Shown: positions 76-27,098 of the stretch, piece after piece
Numbering within the stretch: the stretch's first letter is position 1
Layout of the letters: the number at the start of each line of letters is the position of its first letter
Origin: a virus
Taxonomy: Duplodnaviria; Caudoviricetes
Length of the DNA: 31,521 nt
IMG/VR virus record: IMGVR_UViG_3300011335_000460
Location: 1 to 31,521 of that record
Direction: 5' to 3' (one strand)
The notes under the pieces: generated by a model
The model's input: only the letters and a program-made list of their open reading frames with translations
The model's database searches: none
Told to the model about the DNA's origin: nothing
Program-made: the position numbers and the translations under genes

Positions 76-1287
76 ATGTCTGAAGACGCCAAGAAGTTTC
101 GTGCCATCATGAAGGCAAAGGCAATCGCCCGAGCCAAGCCCCAGACCGGCAAGGTTGACGCTTCCAGCTTCACGCCTGCCGAGCCACTGGACGCTGACGT
201 TCAGACCGGAATGCGCCCGGTATCCCGCCGCGCGTTCAAGTCTGGCGGCAAGGTCGCTGGCGAGGCGTGTGCGCCGAACATGGGCCGTCAGCCCCGCAAG
301 TCTGGCGGCAAGACTGAAGCGGTCGAGATTGCGAACGCCAAGGTCAATCGCAACGTGAAGGACGCCAACGAAGAACGCGAAGGCATCAAGCACGTCGGCG
401 GCATGAAGAAGGGCGGCGTCATCAAGAAGGAATCCGGTGGCTTCACTGACCCGCGCGCTGCGGCTGCCGCGCGCATGTCTGAGGCTGGCGCTAGATCTGG
501 CGTGCCGGTTGGCCGGATGGATTTCTCCGGCATCAAGAAGGGCGCGCTGTCTCCGCTGCGCGGCATGAAGAAGGGCGGCAAGGCCGTTTCCGGCAAGGCT
601 CCGGGCGGCGACTACGGCAGCACCGTTAACGCAGTCCGTGAAGACGCCGCGCCTCTGCCTCCCCGTCGCCCGGTTGAGTTGAGCACCGTTCCTCTGCCTC
701 CCCGTCGCCCGGTTGAGTTGAGCACCGTTCCTCTGCCTCCCCGTCGCCCGGTTGAATTGGGCGGCAAGGAGCCGGACGCAGACGATCTTTACGATGCAGC
801 CGACGCCGCGCGCCTAGAGCGCGGTTACAAGAAGGGCGGCAAGGCCAAGGCGCATGAAGACGTGGCAATGGACAAGGCGCTCATCAAGAAGATGGTGAAG
901 CCTGCGGCCCGCACTGAGAAAGAAGATGGCGGTCGCCTTGCCCGCAAGGCCGGTGGTCGCGCCAAGGGCAAGACGAACATCAACATCATTATCGGCACCG
1001 GCAAGTCGCCGGACGATGGGTCGCAGCAGGCGGCCATGATGGGCGCTCCCCCGCCGATGAACATTCCGGTTCCGGCTCCCATGCCTGCCGGTATGCCACC
1101 CATGCCTGCCGGTGGCCCGCCGCCCATGCCAATGCCGCCGATGCCCGCTGGCCCGCCTCCCGGTATGCCGCCTATGGGCCGCAAGTCTGGCGGTCGCACT
1201 TACCCGAAGATGCACTACGGCGCTGGTAGCGGCCTCGGTCGCATCGAGAAGGTCAACAAGTACGGTCTTACTCCCATCAAGGGCTGA
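76..1287 (+). CDS. Lys/Gly/Pro-rich low-complexity protein with ~10 x-x-x-GG motifs; putative internal head protein
   Basis: ATG with AGGAG at 63-67. Motifs FKSGG, RKSGG x2, MKKGG x2, YKKGG, RKAGG, KESGG, KEDGG, KAPGG; Pro/Met-rich tail; lies upstream of the scaffold/capsid genes. Function is inferred. Confidence 0.8.
   Translation: MSEDAKKFRAIMKAKAIARAKPQTGKVDASSFTPAEPLDADVQTGMRPVSRRAFKSGGKVAGEACAPNMGRQPRKSGGKTEAVEIANAKVNRNVKDANEEREGIKHVGGMKKGGVIKKESGGFTDPRAAAAARMSEAGARSGVPVGRMDFSGIKKGALSPLRGMKKGGKAVSGKAPGGDYGSTVNAVREDAAPLPPRRPVELSTVPLPPRRPVELSTVPLPPRRPVELGGKEPDADDLYDAADAARLERGYKKGGKAKAHEDVAMDKALIKKMVKPAARTEKEDGGRLARKAGGRAKGKTNINIIIGTGKSPDDGSQQAAMMGAPPPMNIPVPAPMPAGMPPMPAGGPPPMPMPPMPAGPPPGMPPMGRKSGGRTYPKMHYGAGSGLGRIEKVNKYGLTPIKG
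652..759 (+). repeat. 39-bp in-frame tandem repeat (~2.8 copies) encoding PLPPRRPVELSTV
   Basis: Units start at 652, 691 and 730 and are essentially identical. Confidence 0.97.
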
Positions 1288-8198: not shown

Positions 8199-10819
8199 GT
8201 TCCATCCAAATCCCAAATCTTACCGCTGCCGTTTCTGTCACGGGATCTGAACAGCTTGAGGCTGTGCAGTCGGGATCGTCTGTCCGCGTGACGGCTGCCC
8301 AGATCGCTTCATTGTCCCCATCTGGTACTGTTACGAGCGTCAACGCATCCGGCGGCACGACCGGGATGTCGTTTACCGGCGGCCCGATTACTTCATCCGG
8401 CACATTGACGCTGGCCGGAACGCTGGTTGCCGTCAACGGCGGAACCGGGCAGTCATCGTATAGCATTGGCGATATTCTTTACGCGAGCAGCTCGACTGCT
8501 TTGTCTAAACTGGCCGACGTAGCCACTGGCAATGCGTTGATTTCGGGCGGAGTGACTACCGCCCCGGCGTGGGGGAAAATCGACCTTACTACGCATGTGA
8601 CCGGCATTCTGCCATCTGCCAATGGTGGAACTGGCGTTAACAACGGGTCAAGTACGATTACGTTGGGCGGGGATCTGACGACATCCGGTGCATTCAGCAC
8701 AACCCTTACATCAACCGCCGCCACTAGCGTCACTTTGCCCGTTTCAGGTAATCTTTTAAGTTCTGTTACGGCTGTGGCTGCGGTAACTGGCACACCATCG
8801 GCGTCCAATTATCTTCGTGGAGACGGGACGTGGGCTACCTTCACGACTGGCACCGTCACGAGCGTATCCGTCACAACGGCAAATGGTGTTTCTGGAACCG
8901 TGGCTACGGCAACGACGACACCTGCAATTAGTCTGACGCTTGGCGCTATCACGCCGACAACGGTTAACGGCATCACATTTACCGCAAACGCCACGGGTTT
9001 TTCTGCGGCGGCAGGCACTGGAACTTTCACGACCGCAGGTGCTTTTGCTCAAACCCACACTGTCACTGCCGCGACTAATGTTACATTTCCCGCCGGGATA
9101 ACAAATAACAATGTTATTTCGTCCGCCACTCAATTGGCAGCCAATCCCGTCACCGGAACGCCATCGGCGTCTACATATCTTCGCGGTGACGGGACGTGGG
9201 CAGCAGTAGCCGGTAGCGGCACCGTCACGAGCGTATCCGTCACAACGGCAAATGGTGTTTCTGGAACCGTGGCCACGGCAACCACGACACCTGCAATTAG
9301 TCTGACGCTCGGCGCTATCACGCCGACAACGGTTAACGGCATCACATTTACCGCAAACGCCACGGGGTTTTCTGCGGCAGGCGGGACTACATCCAAGACA
9401 TTGACTGTTAACAACACGTTAACCCTTGCGGGCACGGATAGCTCGACATTGAATATTGGAGCGGGCGGAACCCTTGGGTCACTGGCATTTTTGTCTCTTG
9501 CCACGGGTACGTATGGCGGAACCGGCGTTAATAACGGATCAAATACAATTACGTTAGGTGGAAACATTAGTACATCTGGCGCATTCACCGCCGCAGGTGC
9601 TTTTGCTCAAACCCACACTGTCACTGCTGCGACTAATGTTACATTTCCCGCCGGGATAACAAATAACAATGTTATTTCGTCCGCCACTCAATTGGCAAAC
9701 AATCCCGTCACCGGAACACCATCGGCGTCTAATTATCTTCGCGGTGACGGGACGTGGGCTACCTTCACGACCGGCACCGTCACGAGCGTTTCGTTCACTG
9801 GCGGCATTGTTTCTGTCGCTAACCCAACAACCACGCCTGCTCTTACGGTTGCGGGAACTTCAGGCGGAATACCTTATTTTAGCTCTGCCTCAACATGGGC
9901 GACATCAGCGGCTCTAGCGGCGAACGCTATTGTCATCGGAGGCGGGGCTGGGGCAACGCCCGCGACCACCACGACCGGGACAGGCGTATTAAGTGCCCTC
10001 GCGGTCAATACTGGCTCTGCCGGTGCGTTTGTGGTTAACGGCGGCGCGCTTGGCACCCCGTCGTCCGGCACCTTGACAAGCGCCACCGGATTGCCGCTGA
10101 CAACCGGCGTAACCGGAATACTACCTGTTGCGAATGGTGGAACGGCGACATCAACCGCGTTTACTGCCGGGTCCGTTGTTTTCGCAGGCGCGAGCGGCGT
10201 TTACACGCAAAACAACAGTAATTTGTTCTGGGACAACACGAACAGTTACCTTGGGATCGGGACTGCTACCCCGCTGGCTCCCATCACGATAACAAAGCAG
10301 ATTACGGCTCTATCTGGCGGAACTGCCGCCTACGGAATGTACCAATACGTTACTTCGTCCGGGGCGCAATACATCGATTGCGTCAACAATGGCGGAAATA
10401 GCGCATTTTTGAATATCAGGACGTACTCGGGCAGCGCGTATAATACGTTTACGTTCGGCACTACCGGGGCCGCAATTCAGGGTAATAACTCGTCTACGTG
10501 GACGGTAGTTTCAGACATACAGATCAAGCAGAACGTAAGGTCTATCGGGTCTCCGTTGACTAAGATCAACGCCCTGAAACCCTGCCACTACGAATACAAA
10601 AACGCGCCGGATGAGATTAGGACCGGGTTTATCGCCCAAGAGTTTGAAAAGGTATTTCCCGGTCACGTTAGCGAAACCGATCCGCCAGACGAATTTAAGA
10701 AGTTCGTCCCGGATGGAGAGAAAATCAAATCTCTGGACGCGAATATCGTCCCGTATCTGGTTGCGGCTATCCAAGAACTCACGACACGACTTGAAGCAAT
10801 TGAAGGTAAACGCCCATGA
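8195..10819 (+). CDS. Tail fibre with C-terminal peptidase S74 intramolecular chaperone
   Basis: Thr/Gly-rich; NGGTG and YLRGDGTW fibre repeats; C-terminal SDIQIKQNV...GFIAQE...coiled coil. Confidence 0.9.
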   Translation: MSSIQIPNLTAAVSVTGSEQLEAVQSGSSVRVTAAQIASLSPSGTVTSVNASGGTTGMSFTGGPITSSGTLTLAGTLVAVNGGTGQSSYSIGDILYASSSTALSKLADVATGNALISGGVTTAPAWGKIDLTTHVTGILPSANGGTGVNNGSSTITLGGDLTTSGAFSTTLTSTAATSVTLPVSGNLLSSVTAVAAVTGTPSASNYLRGDGTWATFTTGTVTSVSVTTANGVSGTVATATTTPAISLTLGAITPTTVNGITFTANATGFSAAAGTGTFTTAGAFAQTHTVTAATNVTFPAGITNNNVISSATQLAANPVTGTPSASTYLRGDGTWAAVAGSGTVTSVSVTTANGVSGTVATATTTPAISLTLGAITPTTVNGITFTANATGFSAAGGTTSKTLTVNNTLTLAGTDSSTLNIGAGGTLGSLAFLSLATGTYGGTGVNNGSNTITLGGNISTSGAFTAAGAFAQTHTVTAATNVTFPAGITNNNVISSATQLANNPVTGTPSASNYLRGDGTWATFTTGTVTSVSFTGGIVSVANPTTTPALTVAGTSGGIPYFSSASTWATSAALAANAIVIGGGAGATPATTTTGTGVLSALAVNTGSAGAFVVNGGALGTPSSGTLTSATGLPLTTGVTGILPVANGGTATSTAFTAGSVVFAGASGVYTQNNSNLFWDNTNSYLGIGTATPLAPITITKQITALSGGTAAYGMYQYVTSSGAQYIDCVNNGGNSAFLNIRTYSGSAYNTFTFGTTGAAIQGNNSSTWTVVSDIQIKQNVRSIGSPLTKINALKPCHYEYKNAPDEIRTGFIAQEFEKVFPGHVSETDPPDEFKKFVPDGEKIKSLDANIVPYLVAAIQELTTRLEAIEGKRP
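8849..9759 (+). repeat. Interleaved internal duplications A-B-A-B in the fibre gene
   Basis: A: 8849-9009 and 9218-9378 (161 bp). B: 9033-9201 and 9591-9759 (169 bp). Near-identical DNA with in-frame offsets of 369 and 558. Confidence 0.93.
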
Positions 10820-17998: not shown

Positions 17999-18601
17999 AT
18001 GCCATTAGCCCACGGGAAATCTCAAAAAACCATCAGTTCAAATATTTCGGAAATGGTCGCTTCCGGCCATCCCCAGAAGCAGGCGATTGCTGCGGCGCTG
18101 AATACCGCCCGGCACACAAAAGCATTCGGCGGCAGTCATATGCCGCGCCCGCCGAAGATGGGCGGGACCAAGCTCCACACCGGCCCGATCCATAGCCGCG
18201 TTGCTGGCCGTACCGACCATCTGCCCATGCACGTCCCGTCGGGGTCTTATGTCATCCCTGCCGACATTATCTCGGCAATGGGCGAGGGCAACACGATGGC
18301 CGGGTTTACGCACATGAAGCGGATATTCGGCGGCGTTCCGTATGGCGGCGCTGGCGCTCCGTATGGCGCGTCCGGTGGCCCTTACGGTTCCTCAATGCCT
18401 CGCAAGGCCGAAGGCGGCGACGTTTCCGGCGTCCCTATCGTGGCGGCAGGTGGCGAATACGTCTTGACGCCAGATGAGGTTGTTTGGGCTGGCGACGGCG
18501 ATCTTGAGACCGGCCACAAGGTTCTTGACGACTTTGTTAAGCAGACACGCGCGCAGACTGTGCAGACACTCAAAGCCCTCCCCGGCCCAAAGAAAGATTA
18601 A
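17999..18601 (+). CDS. Protein with an N-terminal MPLxxGKSQKTIS module and two GG...G[SE]YV modules
   Basis: ATG 17999 after GAGGA; KAFGG...GRTDHLPMHVPSGSYVIPADII and KAEGG...VPIVAAGGEYVLTPDEV. Confidence 0.8.
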   Translation: MPLAHGKSQKTISSNISEMVASGHPQKQAIAAALNTARHTKAFGGSHMPRPPKMGGTKLHTGPIHSRVAGRTDHLPMHVPSGSYVIPADIISAMGEGNTMAGFTHMKRIFGGVPYGGAGAPYGASGGPYGSSMPRKAEGGDVSGVPIVAAGGEYVLTPDEVVWAGDGDLETGHKVLDDFVKQTRAQTVQTLKALPGPKKD

Positions 18602-18602
18602 C

Positions 18603-19091
18603 ATGACCGAAGAACTGGTAATCCGCATCGCTGGCCCGAACGACGTGGACGAGGTAATGCGCCTCGCATTGTCGAGTTGCGCCGAGAACGGGTTCATTAA
18701 TCCAAACCCGTTGAAATTGCTGGCGGAAATATGGCCCGCACTTAACCGGGACAGGGGCATGGTCGCCGTTATCGGAAAGCCGGGCGGTATTGCGGAGGGC
18801 GCAATTCTATTGCGTGTTGGCTCGATGTGGTACGGAGATCAAGAAGTATTGGAAGAAAAGGCAGTATTCGTTCACCCTGATTTCAGGTCTGCAAAAGGTG
18901 GTCGCGCTCGTAAACTTTGCGAGTTCAGTAAACAGGTCGCTGATGGGCTTGGTATTCCATTGATTATTGGTGTATTGTCTAATAATCGCACGGAGGCAAA
19001 GGTCAGAATGTATAAGCGGACCTTTGGCGAGCCTAGTGGGGCGTTCTTTCTTTATGGCGCTACGACCGGCCATTCGACCGTGGAGCACTGA
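18603..19091 (+). CDS. GNAT-fold acyltransferase
   Basis: IRIAGPNDVDEV start; motif A-like VFVHPDFRSAKGGRARKLCEF; MYKR; upstream of the ejection genes. Confidence 0.8.
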   Translation: MTEELVIRIAGPNDVDEVMRLALSSCAENGFINPNPLKLLAEIWPALNRDRGMVAVIGKPGGIAEGAILLRVGSMWYGDQEVLEEKAVFVHPDFRSAKGGRARKLCEFSKQVADGLGIPLIIGVLSNNRTEAKVRMYKRTFGEPSGAFFLYGATTGHSTVEH

Positions 19092-19093
19092 TC

Positions 19094-19861
19094 GTGGGTG
19101 GTCTTTTCTACGTTTACGAGCACTGGCGTCCTGATCGGGACACTTGTTTCTATGTGGGCAAGGGGAAGGGTCGCCGGGCTAATGATATGAAGCGGGGCCG
19201 TAACCGTTTTCATAAGTTTATCCAAGATAAATTATCAAGGATGAGCCTACTTGTTGAAGTTCGCATAGTTCAGGGCGAATTGGATGAGGAATCCGCATTT
19301 TCACTTGAAAAAAAACGTATCGCATTTTGGAAAAATAGCGGCGTCGATATTGCTAATCCAACTTCTGGCGGCGAAGGTCCGTCCGGCATGATCGTGTCAG
19401 AAGAAACTCGTCGAAAACACAGCATATCTTCGACCGGCAGAAAATTGTCTGAAAATGCAAAAAAAGCTATTTCGGTATCCGCAATAGGTAATACTCGTGG
19501 ATTGGGCAAAAAGAGGCCAATCGAAGCGATTGAGGCTACTAGGAAAGCTAATATTGGAAAGAAACGTAGCGAAGAAACCAAACTTAAATTGAGAATTATC
19601 CGTATAAATAACCCGACATTTGCGGGCAAGCACCATACTGAGGATACGATTGAAAAGATTAGCGCACCGCAACGTGGCAGGCCAAAATCTGAAGAGACAA
19701 AAGCGCGTATGCGTAAGCCAAAAAGTGAAGAACATAAATTGAAACTTTCACTTGCGAATATTGGTAAAACTCATTCGCCTGAAACACTGAAAAAGATATC
19801 AGAAAACTCCCGCCAACAGTGGGCAAAGCGTAAGTCTCTTTCACTTATGCAGAAGGAATAG
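19094..19861 (+). mobile_element. Free-standing GIY-YIG homing endonuclease with NUMOD3-type repeats
   Basis: FYVYEH...FYVGKG...R...LE...N-x3-GGEG; repeats SEETRRK, SEETKLK, SEETKAR, SEEHKLK, SPETLKK; visibly AT-richer than its flanks. Confidence 0.88.
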
Positions 19862-19865
19862 CACC

Positions 19866-22800
19866 GTGGGCGGTAAGACTAGCCAAAGCACAAGTTCCGT
19901 TTCAATCCCCCCCGAGGTTTTGGCGCGATATAATGCCGTAAATCTCAGGGCAGAAGACACCGCAAAACAAGGGTTTCAGCAGTATTCCAGCGACCCGAAC
20001 GCATTTGTCGCTCCCCTGACGGCTGGGCAGCAGGCAGGTGTTGCCAATACAAATCAATACGCCAATGCGGCGCAGCCTTATTACGGTGCGGCGGCTGGTA
20101 TGACGGCGGCAGGCGCTGGCCCAATTAACGCGGGCGAGCTAAACACGCAGAAATATATGAACCCGTTCACCAAGAACGTGGCTGATACGACGCAGCAGGC
20201 TCTACAGCAGCAGCAAGAGCAGGCCATGTCTGGCCAGACCGGCAACGCCATCCGTTCCGGTGCGTTCGGCGGCGACCGTTCTGGCATTGCGGCGGCTGTC
20301 GCGCAGCGTCAGAACCAGCAGGGCATGGCTCAGGCTATCGCGCCGATCTACGAGCGCGGGTATTCGCAGGCGCAACAGACGGCTGCACAGCAGCAGGGCG
20401 TCGGCCTTGGGGCAGAACAGGCTAACGCGGCGCGCTACATGCAGGCGGGGCAGCAATTGGCTGGCCTTGGCTCGGCAGCGCAGACGGCTGGCCTACAGGG
20501 CGCACAGGCGCAGTTGGCGGCGGGCAAAGAGCAGCAGCAGACCGAACAGGCCGGTAAGACGGCCATGTACAACCAGTTTCTTCAGCAGCAGGGCTACCCG
20601 TTCCAGGTTGCACAGTTCCTTGCGAATATCGCAATGGGCACGGGCGCATTGTCTGGATCGACGACCACCACGACGCAGCCGCAATCGTTCTTTTCTGACC
20701 GCCGCCTGAAGCACGACATTCGCAAGATTGGCGAGACGGACGACGGGCAGCCGATTTACAAATTCAAGTATAAGGGCGACCCGAAAGAGCAGACGCACAT
20801 TGGCCTGATGGCTCAGGAAGTCGAAAAGAAGCATCCAGAGGCTGTCGGCCTGTCTGGCGGATACAAGACAGTTGACTACGACAAGGCAACGCGCTTTGCG
20901 GAGGGCGGCCTTGTGCCGTCCAGCATGGGCGGTGCTGTCGATGAAGGCATGGCTTACGAGGGCTTTGCTGAAGGCGGAATGCCGTCCTTGAGCATCTTCG
21001 GTATGCCGGGCGGCGGATTGTCTGGGTATATCCCCGGCGAAGTCTTCAAAAACAATATGTCGCCGTCGGATCTTCAGAAAATGCAGTCCGGTTTCATGGC
21101 TCGCGGCGCTGGCCCGAGTTCAAAAACAGGCCTTGGCGCAGCGGCGACTGGTCTCAATGAGATCATGAGTGCTGAAAAATCCCTGGAAAGCGCCTATAAA
21201 ATGGGTTCCAGTGGGGTTGATTGGTTGAAGTCAAAGACCGCCGCCCGTGGCGGCGTTATGGGCTACGCTGGCGGCGGAATGCCGTATGGCGACGACGATA
21301 CTGACAGTACCGACATTCTCGGCGATGTCGTCAAGCAAGGTCAGCAGCAGCACGCATCGCTGCCGAAGCCCGGCGAGGCACCGAAAGCCCCACAGAGCGG
21401 CATCGGGCAGTTGGCGCAGGGTGTTGGCGCACTGAATAGCGGGATGAAAGCCGCGCAGGGTCTATATACGGGCGCTGGAAAACTTGGATCAATGATTTCC
21501 GGCCTTGGCTCGGCGGCTGAAGGCGCAGGCGCTGCGGCTGGCGCTGCTGAGGGGCTTGGGGCTGCGGCTGGCGCTGCCGGAACATTGGGCTCCATCGGAT
21601 CTGGATTGGCGGCGGCAGGATCGACGGCGGCTGAATTGCTGCCGTTCTTGATGATGCTCTCCGACGAGCGCGCGAAGCACGACAAGAAGAAGGTTGGCGA
21701 GCTTTATGATGGCCAGCCGGTCTATAGCTACAAATACAACGGCGACAACCGCACCCAGCTCGGCCTGATGGCGCAGAATGTTGAGCGGAGCCATCCCGAG
21801 GCCGTCGGATCAATGCACGGCATGAAGATGGTTGACTACGACAGGGCAACGTCAGACGCGGCTGATCGTGGGCATTTCTACAGCGGCGGCCTTGTGCCGC
21901 GACATGGGTATCAAGAAGGTGGACCGCCCGCAGATTATAGCTTTGAAGCTGACCTTCCGGCAGAAGGCGCGCAGGAGGTCGCATTTAGAGGCGATGCCGA
22001 TACTAAAAACAGAATCCGGGAAGGAATTATCTCTGCGGCCAATGAGCGTGGTATTGACCCGGTTCACCTCGCTACTGCGATATCCTATGAAACAGGCGGA
22101 ACTTTTGATCCTACCCAAGCTGGGCCGAGGACCAAATGGGGTCGACATCGCGGGCTTATTCAGTTTGGAGAACCGCAGGCCGAAAAATACAAAGTTGATT
22201 GGAATAACCCCGTAGAAACCCAGCTCGGTCCTGACGGAGCTGTCTCAAGGTATTTGGCCGATACCGGCGTCAAACCCGGCATGGGCTTGAAAGACATTTA
22301 CTCGGCCATTAATGCGGGCGGTGTCGGTCGTTACGGAGCGAGAGACGCCCAGCAAGGCGGCGCACCCGGAACCGTGGCCGATAAGGTCGAACAGCAGATG
22401 GGCGGACATCGCACAAATGCTATGAATCTACTTGGTGAGGACGGCACGCAAGGCGATACAAATGTTCCTGCGGCACGTGCCAGATCTTCTGGCGTCTCCC
22501 CGTCCGGCACATCTGCTCGAACTGAAGCGGAACCATCTGCACTTGGCGGCCTTGGTTCGGCAATGGGTGGTATAGGCGACTGGTTCAGTGAGAACAAAGG
22601 TATCATTCTTCCCGTCCTCTCCGGCCTTGGGAAAATGGCGTCTTCGCCCAGCCGTTACCTTGGATCGGCTATCCTTCAGGGTCTGGGCGGCGGTGCCGAA
22701 GCCTATTCCAGTCTCCAGAAAGAGCAGAGTGAAATCGCCAAGAATACGCTTGGCCTGGCTCAGGGAATGTTTGTTCCGGTTGATATTGGCCCATACAAAA

Positions 22801-24104
22801 ATCAATTCTACAACACGACAACTAACCAGTATTACACTTCGGCTCAGAAAAATGCAGCTATTGCAGGGTTGCTCAAAGCGTCGGGCGTTCCGCCGTCCAT
22901 GTACGCTGCACTTCTTTCTCCGTCTGCTGGGGTTGGTTCTAAAGCATCGGTTCCGCAGGCTTCGGACTCTACGGGAGAAGGACGTACGTCTACACAACAG
23001 GACTTGCCCGCACCCACTGATACAGGCGCTACATCAAGCGAAGCTCCTTCTATAAGCCAACCTGCGGCCCCTGCTGCTGGGGCAGCCGCTCCGGCGGCAG
23101 TCGTTACAAAACCGCCGGTTGACGAAGTCGAAACCGGCATTGTTCAACCGATTCCAATTCCATCGCAAAGATACAAAAACGCTCAAGAGGAGTATAATCC
23201 CGCTTTCCTTTCACAAAGAATACAAAGAAACGAAGCGGCTAAACTTTCTGCTCAAAGTCGTGGTGACTCTGCTAAGGCTGCGACGTTTGACGCACAAATC
23301 AAAACTGATTCGGACAAAATAAAAGGAATAAAAGACGGAAGTATTCCCGTCATGGACAATAACGGAAATCAGATTATTATTCCTGAGATTGAAAGAAACA
23401 AAGCTATTTCTAAGTCAAACGAGGCCATACCTACGCGCGTTGATGCGTTTAATAAGGAAGTTCTAGGATCTCAAGAGCAGGTTATAATTCAGAGGCAGCT
23501 TAATGAAATGTTGAATAAAGCATACACTTCAACCGACCTTGGTCCTGGGTCTGATTTTCAACAAAAATTGTATAACATTGCATCCAATGTGCCGGGAGTT
23601 CGTAATTTTCTGGAAAAATACGACACCGCCGGTAAATGGAATCTTGCTGTAAAGAGTTCGGATTATGCGCTAGCTGAGAAAGCCGCTATTACGGAGGCTA
23701 TTACGGCCATTCGTGAAGCTCAGGCTCAACGCGCGCCCGGCACCACTTTGAAATTTACCATGCAAACTGTTCCGGCGGCCAACTTGTCGGCTGGCGCGCG
23801 GTATGAACTCATTGCAAAAAATAATGGGAACATAGACAGGCAGGAGAAACTCAATAACGATTGGTTGGATACGATTAAGAAAGGTCAATATCCTGATCCA
23901 AACCTGTTTGTGAGAGCGTGGAAATTGAAGCCTGAAAACGATCCAAAAGTATTTATTGAAAAAGCCAAACAGAACACGCCCGCTTACGCTGGTATGACCG
24001 AGGGTGAAAAAGCACAATACGGACCAAAAGATCCTGTACACAGAGCAATATTTATGAACCCTCAGATTCTTATGGATGAGCTTAAACGCCGTGGGGCTCA
24101 GTAA
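19866..24104 (+). CDS. Large ejection (DNA transfer) protein with two internal peptidase S74 domains and a lysozyme-like domain
   Basis: Gln/Ala-rich N-terminus (YMNPF, GAFGGDR); SDRRLK at nt 20694 and SDERAK at nt 21660, each with GLMAQ...VDYD; transglycosylase-like AISYETGGTFDP...GLIQF at ~22010-22430. Confidence 0.85.
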   Translation: MGGKTSQSTSSVSIPPEVLARYNAVNLRAEDTAKQGFQQYSSDPNAFVAPLTAGQQAGVANTNQYANAAQPYYGAAAGMTAAGAGPINAGELNTQKYMNPFTKNVADTTQQALQQQQEQAMSGQTGNAIRSGAFGGDRSGIAAAVAQRQNQQGMAQAIAPIYERGYSQAQQTAAQQQGVGLGAEQANAARYMQAGQQLAGLGSAAQTAGLQGAQAQLAAGKEQQQTEQAGKTAMYNQFLQQQGYPFQVAQFLANIAMGTGALSGSTTTTTQPQSFFSDRRLKHDIRKIGETDDGQPIYKFKYKGDPKEQTHIGLMAQEVEKKHPEAVGLSGGYKTVDYDKATRFAEGGLVPSSMGGAVDEGMAYEGFAEGGMPSLSIFGMPGGGLSGYIPGEVFKNNMSPSDLQKMQSGFMARGAGPSSKTGLGAAATGLNEIMSAEKSLESAYKMGSSGVDWLKSKTAARGGVMGYAGGGMPYGDDDTDSTDILGDVVKQGQQQHASLPKPGEAPKAPQSGIGQLAQGVGALNSGMKAAQGLYTGAGKLGSMISGLGSAAEGAGAAAGAAEGLGAAAGAAGTLGSIGSGLAAAGSTAAELLPFLMMLSDERAKHDKKKVGELYDGQPVYSYKYNGDNRTQLGLMAQNVERSHPEAVGSMHGMKMVDYDRATSDAADRGHFYSGGLVPRHGYQEGGPPADYSFEADLPAEGAQEVAFRGDADTKNRIREGIISAANERGIDPVHLATAISYETGGTFDPTQAGPRTKWGRHRGLIQFGEPQAEKYKVDWNNPVETQLGPDGAVSRYLADTGVKPGMGLKDIYSAINAGGVGRYGARDAQQGGAPGTVADKVEQQMGGHRTNAMNLLGEDGTQGDTNVPAARARSSGVSPSGTSARTEAEPSALGGLGSAMGGIGDWFSENKGIILPVLSGLGKMASSPSRYLGSAILQGLGGGAEAYSSLQKEQSEIAKNTLGLAQGMFVPVDIGPYKNQFYNTTTNQYYTSAQKNAAIAGLLKASGVPPSMYAALLSPSAGVGSKASVPQASDSTGEGRTSTQQDLPAPTDTGATSSEAPSISQPAAPAAGAAAPAAVVTKPPVDEVETGIVQPIPIPSQRYKNAQEEYNPAFLSQRIQRNEAAKLSAQSRGDSAKAATFDAQIKTDSDKIKGIKDGSIPVMDNNGNQIIIPEIERNKAISKSNEAIPTRVDAFNKEVLGSQEQVIIQRQLNEMLNKAYTSTDLGPGSDFQQKLYNIASNVPGVRNFLEKYDTAGKWNLAVKSSDYALAEKAAITEAITAIREAQAQRAPGTTLKFTMQTVPAANLSAGARYELIAKNNGNIDRQEKLNNDWLDTIKKGQYPDPNLFVRAWKLKPENDPKVFIEKAKQNTPAYAGMTEGEKAQYGPKDPVHRAIFMNPQILMDELKRRGAQ

Positions 24105-26584
24105 TGGCAGGTAACTTAGATCTATCTTCCATTCCAACTGACGTTCTTAAGGCGTATGCGTCTAAACTTGGCGCTGCGCCGACTGCTGCGCCGACAACCA
24201 AGTCAAATGTCGATCTGAGTTCAATATCGACTGAAGAATTGCAGAAATATGCTGATAGCATGGGCATCAATACGGGGGGTGCCGAAACACCCCCCACCAA
24301 AACCGTAACCGCGCAAAACTTTACCACGCCTGAGCAGGACATGGAGGCCCGTGCGGCTAAGTTCCGCCCCGAGGCGGCAAAAGCTATAGCGGGGCAATCT
24401 GCGTTAAGAACAATGGTTCCGATGGGCGCAGACATTCCTGTTTTTGGGCCACTGGTTCAACGTGGAATTGCAAAATACAAATCTACCGGCACGGAAGATC
24501 AGGGTAAATACGGCTCCACGCCAGAAGAACGGTACAGAAACATACTGGCCGAGAACAAGGCGTATGAGACCGAACGCAACGTACAGAACCCCAACCTGAG
24601 CTGGGTTCCGAGTATTGCTGGCGGCATTGCGTCTGCTGCTGCAGTCCCATTGGCGTTAGCGGCATTACCGGCGGCTCCTGCAGGCGCTGCGGGTGTCGGC
24701 GGAACATTGGCGGCGTTACGTGCGGCGAGTGCTGCTCGGCCAATTGCATCGGCAATTGGTAGCGGCATAGGGTGGGGCGCAGCGTCTACCGCTGCCGAAA
24801 CTCTGCCCGGAGAAAGCGCAGAAGACTACGCCCTACGGATTGGTACAGGCGCAGCAATAGGCGCTCCGCTTGGTTTTGCCGGTTACGGAGTCAGTAAGGC
24901 AATTGTCGGGGCTGGTAAGGGTGTAGCCAACGCATCGAGTTTATTGTTCAACCCTGAACAACACGCCATCGGCAAGATGGCGGCTGCTGAAGCCGCAGCT
25001 CCCGTGGCGTCTAAAGGATTGTCGTCGGCAGAAGCCGCCGCGTTAAGGGATGCGGGTGCTCCAGTTGTAGCCACAGACATCAGAGGTGTAACGCCTGCTG
25101 TCCAGAAAGCCGCCAATCGGCTTCCAGAAAATGAGAATATTGCAAAAATAAACGACTCGCTGCTGGCTCGAACACAGGAAAGCAGCGTCAAATTTCAATC
25201 GATGATTGATGACGCACACGCAGTCAAAGTCGGCAACCCAGCCGCCGTAATAGACCCCGTCGCGTCAAGAGCTGCCGCTGATGCAGAAGCGCGGCTCGTT
25301 AACAAACCGGCCTACGACGCCGCATATGCCGCACCCGCAGCTCAAAACATCTGGAATTCAAACCTAGAAAATCTGATTAATACTAAACATGGCCAAAGTG
25401 CAATTGACTGGGCAGTGACTAATTCTAACGCACATGCGTATGACACTAAATCTATACCTATTCGAAACCCGTTTGTTAAAAATTCCAAAACTGGACTCTA
25501 CGAATTTCCTATTGGTGCGCCGCCGCCGTCACTACAGTTCTGGGATTGGGTTAAACGCGGATTAAACGGTGCGACAAGCGTAGCGAGGAACAAAGGGGAT
25601 AACGATAGCGCGAGGGTTATTGCTAATAACGCACGAAGCCTTACTGATGATTTGAAAACTACAGTTCCAGAATACGGCACTGCATTGCAGGGCGCGCAAC
25701 GCTATATAAAGGAAGACAACGCCTTTGACGCGGGGATGAAGTTCTTTACTCTTGCGGATGCGTCAAAGAAAACGGACCCGATGGTCTTGGGTAAGCAGTT
25801 GGATTTCTTCAAAAACCCCAACCCACAGAAGCAGTACACGACCGGGGAGAAAGCGGGCTTTAATGAAGGCCTGCTGTCCTTCTTGAAATCAAATCCTGAA
25901 CAAGCCGCAAAGGTGTTTGCCAAGAACGACGCTGCAACAATGAATAATCTTCAGTCCGTCATGGACCCGCAGGTATTCAAAGCGGTGCAGACGGCCTCTC
26001 AGGTTCAGCGCATTTCGGCTTTGGCAAAGACAATCGTCCCACCGGCAGAGCCCTCCCGTCTAAAGGGCGTCTTGCAGGGCGGCATAGGCGCAACTGTTCT
26101 GGTCGGTATTTATAATCACATACCAGAAATCATAGCTCATATGAGTAACCCGGCATCTCTTATTGGAACCGGCTTATTGGCCGGTACTGGCCTTGCAACA
26201 AGATCCGCCTACAACGGAATACAAAACCGAAATGCGCGTATTCTTTTAGAAATGGCAACATCAAACGATCCGGCCATACTGAAGAAGGTTCAGGAAGCCG
26301 CTGCATCTAACGCCAATGTTCGAACAGCTTTGCATGAGCTGGAACAGGGGATGGCGCGTTATCTTGCTGCAAAGGGAACGACTTACTCAACTCCTCCCGA
26401 GGCTTCAAATTCTCGTATTCAACGCAAATCCGGCGGCAAGGTCGGCCACGCGCATCTTGTCAGCCGGTTGATGAAACTGGCGGAGCACGCCAAGAAAAGC
26501 TCGAATAAGGCTACCGAGCCTCTCTTGAATGCGTCAGACGATCACGTCGTCAGGGCTTTGGATGTAGCGCAGCGGGCTATCTAA
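24104..26584 (+). CDS. Second large putative ejection/internal virion protein
   Basis: TAATG coupling; Ala/Gly-rich hydrophobic segments; two N-terminal DLSSI repeats; RKSGG near the C-terminus; last gene of the operon. Confidence 0.75.
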   Translation: MAGNLDLSSIPTDVLKAYASKLGAAPTAAPTTKSNVDLSSISTEELQKYADSMGINTGGAETPPTKTVTAQNFTTPEQDMEARAAKFRPEAAKAIAGQSALRTMVPMGADIPVFGPLVQRGIAKYKSTGTEDQGKYGSTPEERYRNILAENKAYETERNVQNPNLSWVPSIAGGIASAAAVPLALAALPAAPAGAAGVGGTLAALRAASAARPIASAIGSGIGWGAASTAAETLPGESAEDYALRIGTGAAIGAPLGFAGYGVSKAIVGAGKGVANASSLLFNPEQHAIGKMAAAEAAAPVASKGLSSAEAAALRDAGAPVVATDIRGVTPAVQKAANRLPENENIAKINDSLLARTQESSVKFQSMIDDAHAVKVGNPAAVIDPVASRAAADAEARLVNKPAYDAAYAAPAAQNIWNSNLENLINTKHGQSAIDWAVTNSNAHAYDTKSIPIRNPFVKNSKTGLYEFPIGAPPPSLQFWDWVKRGLNGATSVARNKGDNDSARVIANNARSLTDDLKTTVPEYGTALQGAQRYIKEDNAFDAGMKFFTLADASKKTDPMVLGKQLDFFKNPNPQKQYTTGEKAGFNEGLLSFLKSNPEQAAKVFAKNDAATMNNLQSVMDPQVFKAVQTASQVQRISALAKTIVPPAEPSRLKGVLQGGIGATVLVGIYNHIPEIIAHMSNPASLIGTGLLAGTGLATRSAYNGIQNRNARILLEMATSNDPAILKKVQEAAASNANVRTALHELEQGMARYLAAKGTTYSTPPEASNSRIQRKSGGKVGHAHLVSRLMKLAEHAKKSSNKATEPLLNASDDHVVRALDVAQRAI

Positions 26585-26594
26585 AGCTTGCGCC

Positions 26595-27098
26595 TCAGAA
26601 CTGCTTATAGATGCGCGATTCCGTGGTAGCCCCAGTGCGCGGCTTGTAATAGTTGACGCTGTGGTGGTGAGCGCAGAACGAATGGCGAAGGACTGTTGCG
26701 CCGCAATACAAAGTATTTGCGCCGTCAACCGGCCCGATAATTTCGTGACACGTCGTCCGGTTCAGGTCGCGCATTCCAATGGGCAACACGTTTTCCATCG
26801 CGACGGTTTCGACGGGCGGGCGCACGTACACCAGCCGAATTGTAGGCTTTCTGGGTGGGGCTGCCTTTTTGACGGCAACCTTGGCCTTGTTGGCCTTTCT
26901 CTTATTGGCTTTCTTCTGTTGAATTGTGTCAGACGGCGGAAGCATCTTTCTCCCCCTCAATCTAAAAATGCGCCCCAGGATTGCCGAGCGCGTCGTCTTC
27001 TCGCCGGTCTGGTTCTCAACCTCTATCGCAATCCGGCTGGCGGGAGCTTTTTCGTGCCACATGCGAATAACGATTGCGTCTACGTCAATTATAGCCAT
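26595..27098 (-). CDS. gcrA: GcrA-family cell-cycle regulator homologue
   Basis: N-terminal W-x4-ASRIA...TRSAILGRIFRL, basic linker, C-terminal DLNRTTC...IG...YCG...FCAHH...Y. Confidence 0.82.
   Translation of the reverse strand: MAIIDVDAIVIRMWHEKAPASRIAIEVENQTGEKTTRSAILGRIFRLRGRKMLPPSDTIQQKKANKRKANKAKVAVKKAAPPRKPTIRLVYVRPPVETVAMENVLPIGMRDLNRTTCHEIIGPVDGANTLYCGATVLRHSFCAHHHSVNYYKPRTGATTESRIYKQF

Follow-up and report, generated by a model that had tools for sequence, protein, structure and literature searches.

The virus record IMGVR_UViG_3300011335_000460 (Duplodnaviria; Caudoviricetes) was analyzed over its entire length of 31,521 nucleotides (hereafter, the window), which amounts to about 54% of a genome. 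Its genes, among them those for SU10-type adaptors, a nozzle-like protein and a GNAT acetyltransferase, look like the virion module of a short-tailed phage. We focus on one gene of this module, in which ejection protein segments are fused into a single 1412-residue product with two internal S74 domains (here, the polyprotein; Table 1). A first-pass annotation, made from the sequence alone, had proposed that this product is a self-cleaving polyprotein.

Structure of the fused ejection gene

The gene holds a P22 gp7-like position, after the nozzle and acetyltransferase genes, with a homing endonuclease gene intervening here. Residues 2–344 of its product match PHROG 4287 ("DNA ejection protein", E 1.1e-20) over nearly all 392 columns, and the protein also matches PHROG 6121 (E 9.1e-42). 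The segments upstream of both S74 domains are Gln/Ala- and Gly/Ala-rich, and their best profile matches are to ejection proteins. The first-pass annotation had described the middle segment as Gly/Ala-rich and membrane-like; its hydrophobicity is only moderate (best 19-residue Kyte-Doolittle mean 1.43, residues 580–598). The transglycosylase assigned to the C-terminal part found a weak match in the lytic transglycosidase PDB 9UDH (E 0.021), in an alignment that pairs the ET and GLIQF motifs, but no Pfam match at E 0.1. Relatives carry other wall hydrolases (PF01464, PF18013, PF07486, PF02557, PF00959, PF05838 and PF08291), apparently at this position, which would be a swappable slot.

PF13884 matches the polyprotein twice, with E 4.1e-18 and a score of 65.8 bits where the cut-off is 22, which bears out the earlier reading of two internal S74 domains, starting with FFSDRRLK at Ser277 and MLSDERAK at Ser599 and keeping both Ser/Lys dyads (Ser277/Lys282 and Ser599/Lys604). 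Among the best 120 homologs, the S-D-x-R-x-K start was present in 224 of 224 S74 domains, a count made with a profile seeded on that very pattern. A profile of 42 compact S74 modules matched ICA domains of known structure, namely 6F45 (E 3.7e-5), 3GUD (E 0.013) and, at a weak score, MYRF 7DC3 (E 0.27), while a PDB search with S74 domain 1 as a single sequence gave nothing useful. The domains share with ICA domains (PF13884; endosialidase, GA-1 gp12 and MYRF) the Pfam match, the N-terminal SDxRxK dyad and these matches to solved structures, and an internal position like that in the polyprotein is already described in published passages on MYRF. They differ in being compact, optional within the clade and present in two copies per chain, and in that the protein bearing them is a Gln/Ala-rich ejection protein and not a triple beta-helix. 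Judged by sequence, they are a compact variant, S74-like with one defining feature failing. The premise of the first-pass annotation that S74 domains are normally single, C-terminal and borne on trimeric spikes or fibers needs correction, since annotations of cultured podophages already include a single compact S74 domain as the last part of the first ejection protein.

Conservation of the fusion and split forms in cultured phages

Homology to the polyprotein was found in 2474 of 7999 candidates scored. The best 120 homologs (the window's own included) carry two S74 domains in 104 cases and one in 16, in a ranking that favors two-copy proteins. To lessen this bias, we also sampled 80 loci chosen via a neighboring gene, 68 of which had a pilot open reading frame, leaving 35 distinct complete relatives. 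All 35 were fused (1050–1868 residues), and since they carry two (17), one (14) or no (4) S74 domains, S74 is optional. The fusion is shared throughout a large clade of uncultured phages. Shorter homologs were set aside as evidence of splitting, most of them being likely fragments.

The compact S74 domain also matched 67 records from cultured podophages. In the three of these phages that were inspected (phiGT1, ppBeUSDA76-2 and RHph_N2), the pilot gene (339–367 residues) ends a few residues past S74 and is followed by a separate ejection gene; the phiGT1 record already annotates the S74 domain. Hence, joint 1 (the position of the first S74 domain in the polyprotein, joint 2 being that of the second) is a gene boundary elsewhere, and the split forms that had been predicted in relatives do exist. 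No split form was seen at joint 2. In virion mass spectrometry, phiGT1 gp17, which is syntenic with the pilot, is given as IVPB/gene 7 (supplement to PMC10386132); the main-text passages of that paper are silent on a chaperone. The P22 gp7/gp20/gp16-type modules of these three phages resemble that of the window in having a GNAT gene, an S74-ended pilot, a hydrolase-bearing protein and a third large protein, whereas the window fuses the first two proteins and adds a middle segment.

A motif that is interchangeable with S74

The GG motifs that the first-pass annotation had read after each S74 domain are in place (FAEGG at residues 344 and 367, FYSGG at 671 and YQEGG at 682), and there is a further YAGGG at 467. 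The total number of GG pairs is near chance (2215 against 1993 expected), as would fit a single long ejection protein that undergoes no processing and whose GG motifs merely give flexibility to Gly-rich linkers. The specific motif [FYRKH]AxGG, a pattern picked after inspecting the data, is nonetheless six-fold enriched (318 in 120 homologs against 51 in shuffles) and restricted to the joint region, with 311 of the 318 copies between the first S74 domain and just past the last joint and 0 in the pilot. Together with the gene boundaries at joint 1 in cultured phages, this makes the unprocessed form very improbable.

GG lies within 20 residues of the S74 end in 206 of 221 cases in the 120 homologs (0.24 at random positions). 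Where S74 is missing, the motif takes its place. At joint 2, 15 of the 16 one-S74 homologs have GG within 6 residues after the joint-2 segment, defined as the stretch most like that preceding S74 number 2 (chance 0.19); for example, LPFLMML-SDERAK of the window corresponds to FLPALFL-ANGG in such a homolog. The 349 distinct sequences compared at joint 1 comprised 269 with the S74 pattern, 46 without the anchor, 17 that were truncated and 17 without the pattern. Sorting by eye divided these last into variant domains (4), likely frameshifts (5) and intact proteins without S74 (8), and xRGG or xHGG was present at joint 1 in all 8 of the intact ones. S74 and the AxGG-type motif are interchangeable at both joints, with the motif as the common denominator. 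Two joint-1 variants (P0168 and P0174) include one divergent insert starting SDEDNK and one domain with Lys replaced by Glu.

The motif was found in 5 of 23 window genes tested: 7 copies in the open reading frame at 76–1287 (0.49 expected; 10 by a looser pattern), 6 in the polyprotein (1.53 expected), 2 in the 17999–18601 product, 1 near the end of the 24104–26584 product and 1 in a fiber gene. In the downstream gene, it falls within the last 75 residues in 28 of 33 distinct relatives. The motif is phage-wide, marking other likely internal proteins of the phage, and is present at joints without S74 as well; it is not tied to S74 excision, a role that the first-pass annotation had suggested for it. 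It is absent from the three split phages tested, with no [FYRKH]AxGG in 7 of the 9 ejection genes of phiGT1, ppBeUSDA76-2 and RHph_N2 (the 7 tested).

A conserved helical tail of about 50 residues follows xxGG in the downstream gene (window 26423–26584 and 33 related loci), and short "AL.vA" helices of a similar kind are found at the ends of other proteins with the motif; the tail is possibly a removable packaging tag. In complete relatives, large variable proteins encoded between portal and scaffold (L053:15172-19739, L054:739-2646 and L057:3-3233) show, by eye, xAxGG between apparent domains. By eye, they resemble polyvalent proteins.

Position of the predicted cut in T5, lambda and crAss001

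The first-pass annotation had suggested a second cut at GG, and our own first reading was a cut after GG, a rule of the ubiquitin- or adenovirus-protease style. It was dropped, since AxGG stands at the start both of T5 pb2C and of the gp45 piece resolved in crAss001. In T5, mass spectrometry mapped the cut in the tape-measure protein pb2 to the position following R1127, where a hydrophobic stretch gives way to the C-terminal domain (passages of PMC10038345), and the sequence at the mapped cut is R↓AEGG, an arrangement like that at the polyprotein joints. In crAss001, the portal-bound piece of gp45 seen by cryo-electron microscopy spans residues 425–552 (passages of PMC10172136) and starts A425-F-G-G. 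The gp45 protein (L148:21988-24516) has six AxGG-type sites (8 overlapping matches against 1.1 in shuffles), both of its resolved pieces lie between motifs, and 13 of the other 16 proteins tested have no such sites. That gp45 may exist as separate pieces is our own reinterpretation. As with the polyprotein, gp45 (crAss001 C1; PF25725) belongs to a short-tailed phage, is an internal cargo protein and bears the same motif type; it differs in lacking S74 and any sequence or fold match to window proteins, and no cleavage is reported in the passages of PMC10172136.

Lambda gpH loses a piece of about 14 kDa, for which passages of a 2025 paper state the site and enzyme as unknown (PMC12617516). A cut at F733-ATGG would yield about 12.5 kDa (12.7 from F733), which is close to this value but not equal to it, and the motif is followed by a domain homologous to the halves of the 17999–18601 product (see below). 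Both T5 and lambda differ from the polyprotein in making a single cut in a siphophage tail ruler, against several predicted in a podophage ejection protein; in T5, moreover, the downstream domain is described as a muralytic metallopeptidase. The primary signal is likely a cut before AxGG, not at or after GG.

A candidate enzyme or adaptor

The product of gene 17999–18601 has two homologous half-domains (RTDH..GSYV and GGEYV) and two KAxGG motifs, and belongs to a family with 3195 representatives at E 0.001. About 150 representatives all keep R71, T72, D73 and D177, and 98% of them keep E153. A profile of the domain was built from 13 cultured-phage sequences, mostly tape-measure proteins, and in most tape-measure seeds the domain comes directly after an FAxGG-like motif. 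This profile scored 20.4 bits against the first half of the protein (best of 300 shuffles, 9.0), a score that is not independent because some seeds were reached via the window gene, and 11.3 bits against lambda gpH (shuffles, 5.5); hhalign gave 95%, 87% and 94%. Among cultured phages, the family is present in both of those that bear the motif (2 of 2) and in none of the split ones (0 of 3). The domain stands right after FADGG or MARGG in LKA5_058 (L151:18968-21130) and GB2A gp65 (L152:2537-4279), both of cultured phages. We tentatively propose, at somewhat short of an even chance, that this protein is the enzyme that cuts before AxGG, with Asp73 of one half and Glu153 of the other as a possible acid pair; it is also possible that it is a binding adaptor or that a host enzyme is the cutter.

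Structure-based searches gave little. Two models of the protein (pLDDT 72.7 and 76.7) had no PDB fold match, a wide fold search with the full model returned results filled by the N-terminal helices, and a viral fold library gave uncharacterized proteins only (E up to 0.001). The nearest named cluster in the Atlas was crAss_CARG1 (0.78–0.85, under the 0.9 bar), which serves as a lead only; crAss_CARG1 (PF25725) has no candidate in the window, reached 0.15% in hhalign and was not listed by Foldseek. In a rival reading, S74 alone cuts, and the xAxGG motifs stay uncut, serving as docking or packaging tags to which the 17999–18601 product binds as a cargo adaptor at the portal. The lack of a protease fold and the crAss_CARG1 lead are in keeping with this, as are the 7 to 10 motif copies in one low-complexity protein, as a multivalent tag might have, and the portal wing binding of the motif-initiated crAss gp45 domain (passages of PMC10172136). 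However, close relatives without one or both S74 domains would then stay fused where others are cut, and T5 pb2 is cut exactly before AEGG, which together render this alternative unlikely.

A different question is whether the AxGG cuts are real but made by a host protease or another phage protein, the 17999–18601 product being non-catalytic; this competes only with the enzyme step of our proposal. In favor of this, the window holds only about half of the genome, and the post-cut domain of T5 has no detectable homology to the candidate. A 1973 paper on T5 reportedly names selective host involvement in tail-protein cleavage in its title, which we count for a host protease. Against this stand the co-occurrence of the candidate domain with the motif, its place directly after FAxGG-like motifs in most tape-measure seeds, and its invariant residues. 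We regard an outside enzyme as rather unlikely, though a serious contender.

Proposed maturation of the ejection precursor

Taken together, the sequence comparisons suggest that a fused ejection precursor is cut during assembly by the S74 domains and by a second activity before A-x-G-G, a reading that we hold to be probable, with some reservation. The precursor would be packaged and then cut at both kinds of site, by the S74 domains just before Ser277 and Ser599 and by the second activity just before the A-x-G-G motifs. The AxGG cut would be the older, phage-wide signal, and S74 an optional cassette inserted between the end of a hydrophobic segment and the motif, with the downstream motif clipping the spent S74 from the next product. 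S74 and AxGG may be able to swap because both cuts would leave nearly the same hydrophobic C terminus. The predicted products are a 28.6 kDa pilot, one or two Gly/Ala-rich pieces of 10–12 kDa, a hydrolase-bearing protein of about 77 kDa and S74 fragments of 8 kDa. The polyprotein reading of the first-pass annotation is thus retained as far as split forms and invariant Ser/Lys go, and revised in four respects: the motif, not the optional S74, is the common feature; the cut is expected before A-x-G-G and not at GG; the motif is phage-wide and not bound to S74 excision; and more than the proposed three or so products are expected, as the middle segment is predicted to be cut further.

Several points weigh against this proposal. 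The S74 domains of the polyprotein are, by sequence, only 68–73 residues long and run into the GG motifs without a coiled coil, whereas in MyRF a C-terminal coiled coil drives trimerization and cleavage requires the trimer (passages of PMC8326128); oligomerization might here be supplied by the ejection protein itself. Four variant S74 domains occur among shorter matches, one of them with Lys changed to Glu, and both motifs after S74 number 2 in the window lack Ala. The T5 match is one site, and a second pattern match in pb2 (RALGG at 138) has no cut reported in the passages of PMC10038345. The authors of the crAss001 structure take gp45 as a single chain (passages of PMC10172136), and the start of modelled density may not be a cut. 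The post-motif domains of T5 pb2C and crAss gp45 do not match the candidate domain, and the 17999–18601 product has no peptidase match by Pfam, PDB sequence or fold search. Finally, we found no virion proteomics for any phage of the fused clade.

The missing coiled coil, which MyRF activity requires in the source cited above, would also suit a scheme in which all cutting takes place at AxGG, with the compact S74 domains present as passengers that do not cut or as small structural modules; so would the dispensability of S74, which is absent from 4 of 35 relatives and single in 14. Yet Ser, Asp, Arg and Lys are kept in all 224 domains, and the same compact S74 ends the pilot in phages without the motif and the candidate protease, and we consider passenger domains decidedly improbable. 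If active, an S74 of 68 residues that has no coiled coil would represent a minimal autoprotease.

The precursor that we propose resembles polyvalent phage proteins, multi-domain injected proteins that have been proposed or shown to be cut into units (passages of PMC5512222, whose main text has 0 occurrences of S74), and the ejection proteins of giant phages, which prohead proteases likewise cut into units. Those systems differ in using zincin or assemblin-like peptidases, none of which was matched in the 26 window proteins scanned; Pfam and PHROG scans of these proteins matched no protease family. We found no description of an S74-bearing ejection polyprotein or of an AxGG cut motif in the literature searched, which left most subscription journals uncovered.

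Genomic context

The remaining features are listed with those of the polyprotein in Table 1. A GcrA-like regulator (PF07750, E 9.8e-9; 26595–27098, minus strand) hints at an alphaproteobacterial host. A GroES-like (Cpn10) gene lies within the head module (1637–2029) and is kept in the related genomes G001, G002 and G004. The homing endonuclease gene (19094–19861), which bears NUMOD3, is inserted between the GNAT gene and the polyprotein gene. In the relatives G001 and G004, conserved open reading frames were inspected by eye from a list.

Table 1. Features of the polyprotein gene and of other genes in the window (residue numbers are those of the encoded protein)
Feature	Position	Strand	Remarks
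Fused ejection polyprotein gene	19866..24104	+	GTG start, 1412 residues
Pilot segment, residues 1–276	19866..20693	+	Gln/Ala-rich, P22 gp7-like; predicted 28.6 kDa product
Compact S74 domain 1, residues 277–344	20694..20897	+	Ser277, Lys282; no C-terminal coiled coil
F↓AEGG motif, residues 344–348	20895..20909	+	Predicted cut before Ala345, position by analogy with T5 pb2
Middle segment, residues 345–598	20898..21659	+	Gly/Ala-rich; most hydrophobic stretch at its end (580–598)
F↓AEGG motif, residues 367–371	20964..20978	+	
Y↓AGGG motif, residues 467–471	21264..21278	+	New relative to the first-pass annotation
Compact S74 domain 2, residues 599–671	21660..21878	+	Ser599, Lys604
FYSGG (671–675) and YQEGG (682–686)	21876..21923	+	Variant motifs without Ala at the second position
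C-terminal ejection segment, residues 683–1412	21912..24101	+	Predicted ~77 kDa; placed like the separate muramidase-bearing phiGT1_18
Likely lytic-transglycosylase-like domain	21996..22436	+	Putative catalytic Glu742; PDB 9UDH, E 0.021
Conserved 200-residue protein	17999..18601	+	Candidate AxGG protease or AxGG-binding adaptor
GNAT acetyltransferase-like gene	18474..19091	+	First of ejection module; PHROG 1249, E 5.9e-7; likewise placed in phiGT1 and RHph_N2
Next likely ejection protein	24104..26584	+	RKSGG at residue 774, then conserved ~50-residue helical tail
Basic low-complexity protein upstream of scaffold region	76..1287	+	7–10 xxGG motifs; in 5/5 related genomes
Tail-fiber C-terminal S74, ordinary type	10511..10819	+	Internal comparison; 102 residues with coiled-coil helix

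Implications for phage maturation

A wider and more tentative reading, which we hold to be less likely than not, is that many phages share X↓A-x-G-G as a hitherto unrecognized maturation signal and that the cut is made by a small protease domain with an acid pair, namely the 17999–18601 product in the window and the domain after FATGG in lambda gpH. If this were true, the fused ejection and cargo genes of the clade would encode true polyproteins, the cut in T5 pb2 would be explained, the lambda gpH site would be predicted at F733↓A734 together with its enzyme, crAss001 gp45 would be stored as separate pieces, and S74 would be a plug-in self-cutting cassette at motif sites. The motif yields exact predictions in lambda, T5 and crAss001; it names a candidate site and catalyst for gpH and offers an alternative reading of the crAss001 cargo structure. 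Ejection proteins are usually encoded by separate genes, whereas this large phage clade appears to make them from a single precursor, with two interchangeable cutting devices per joint.

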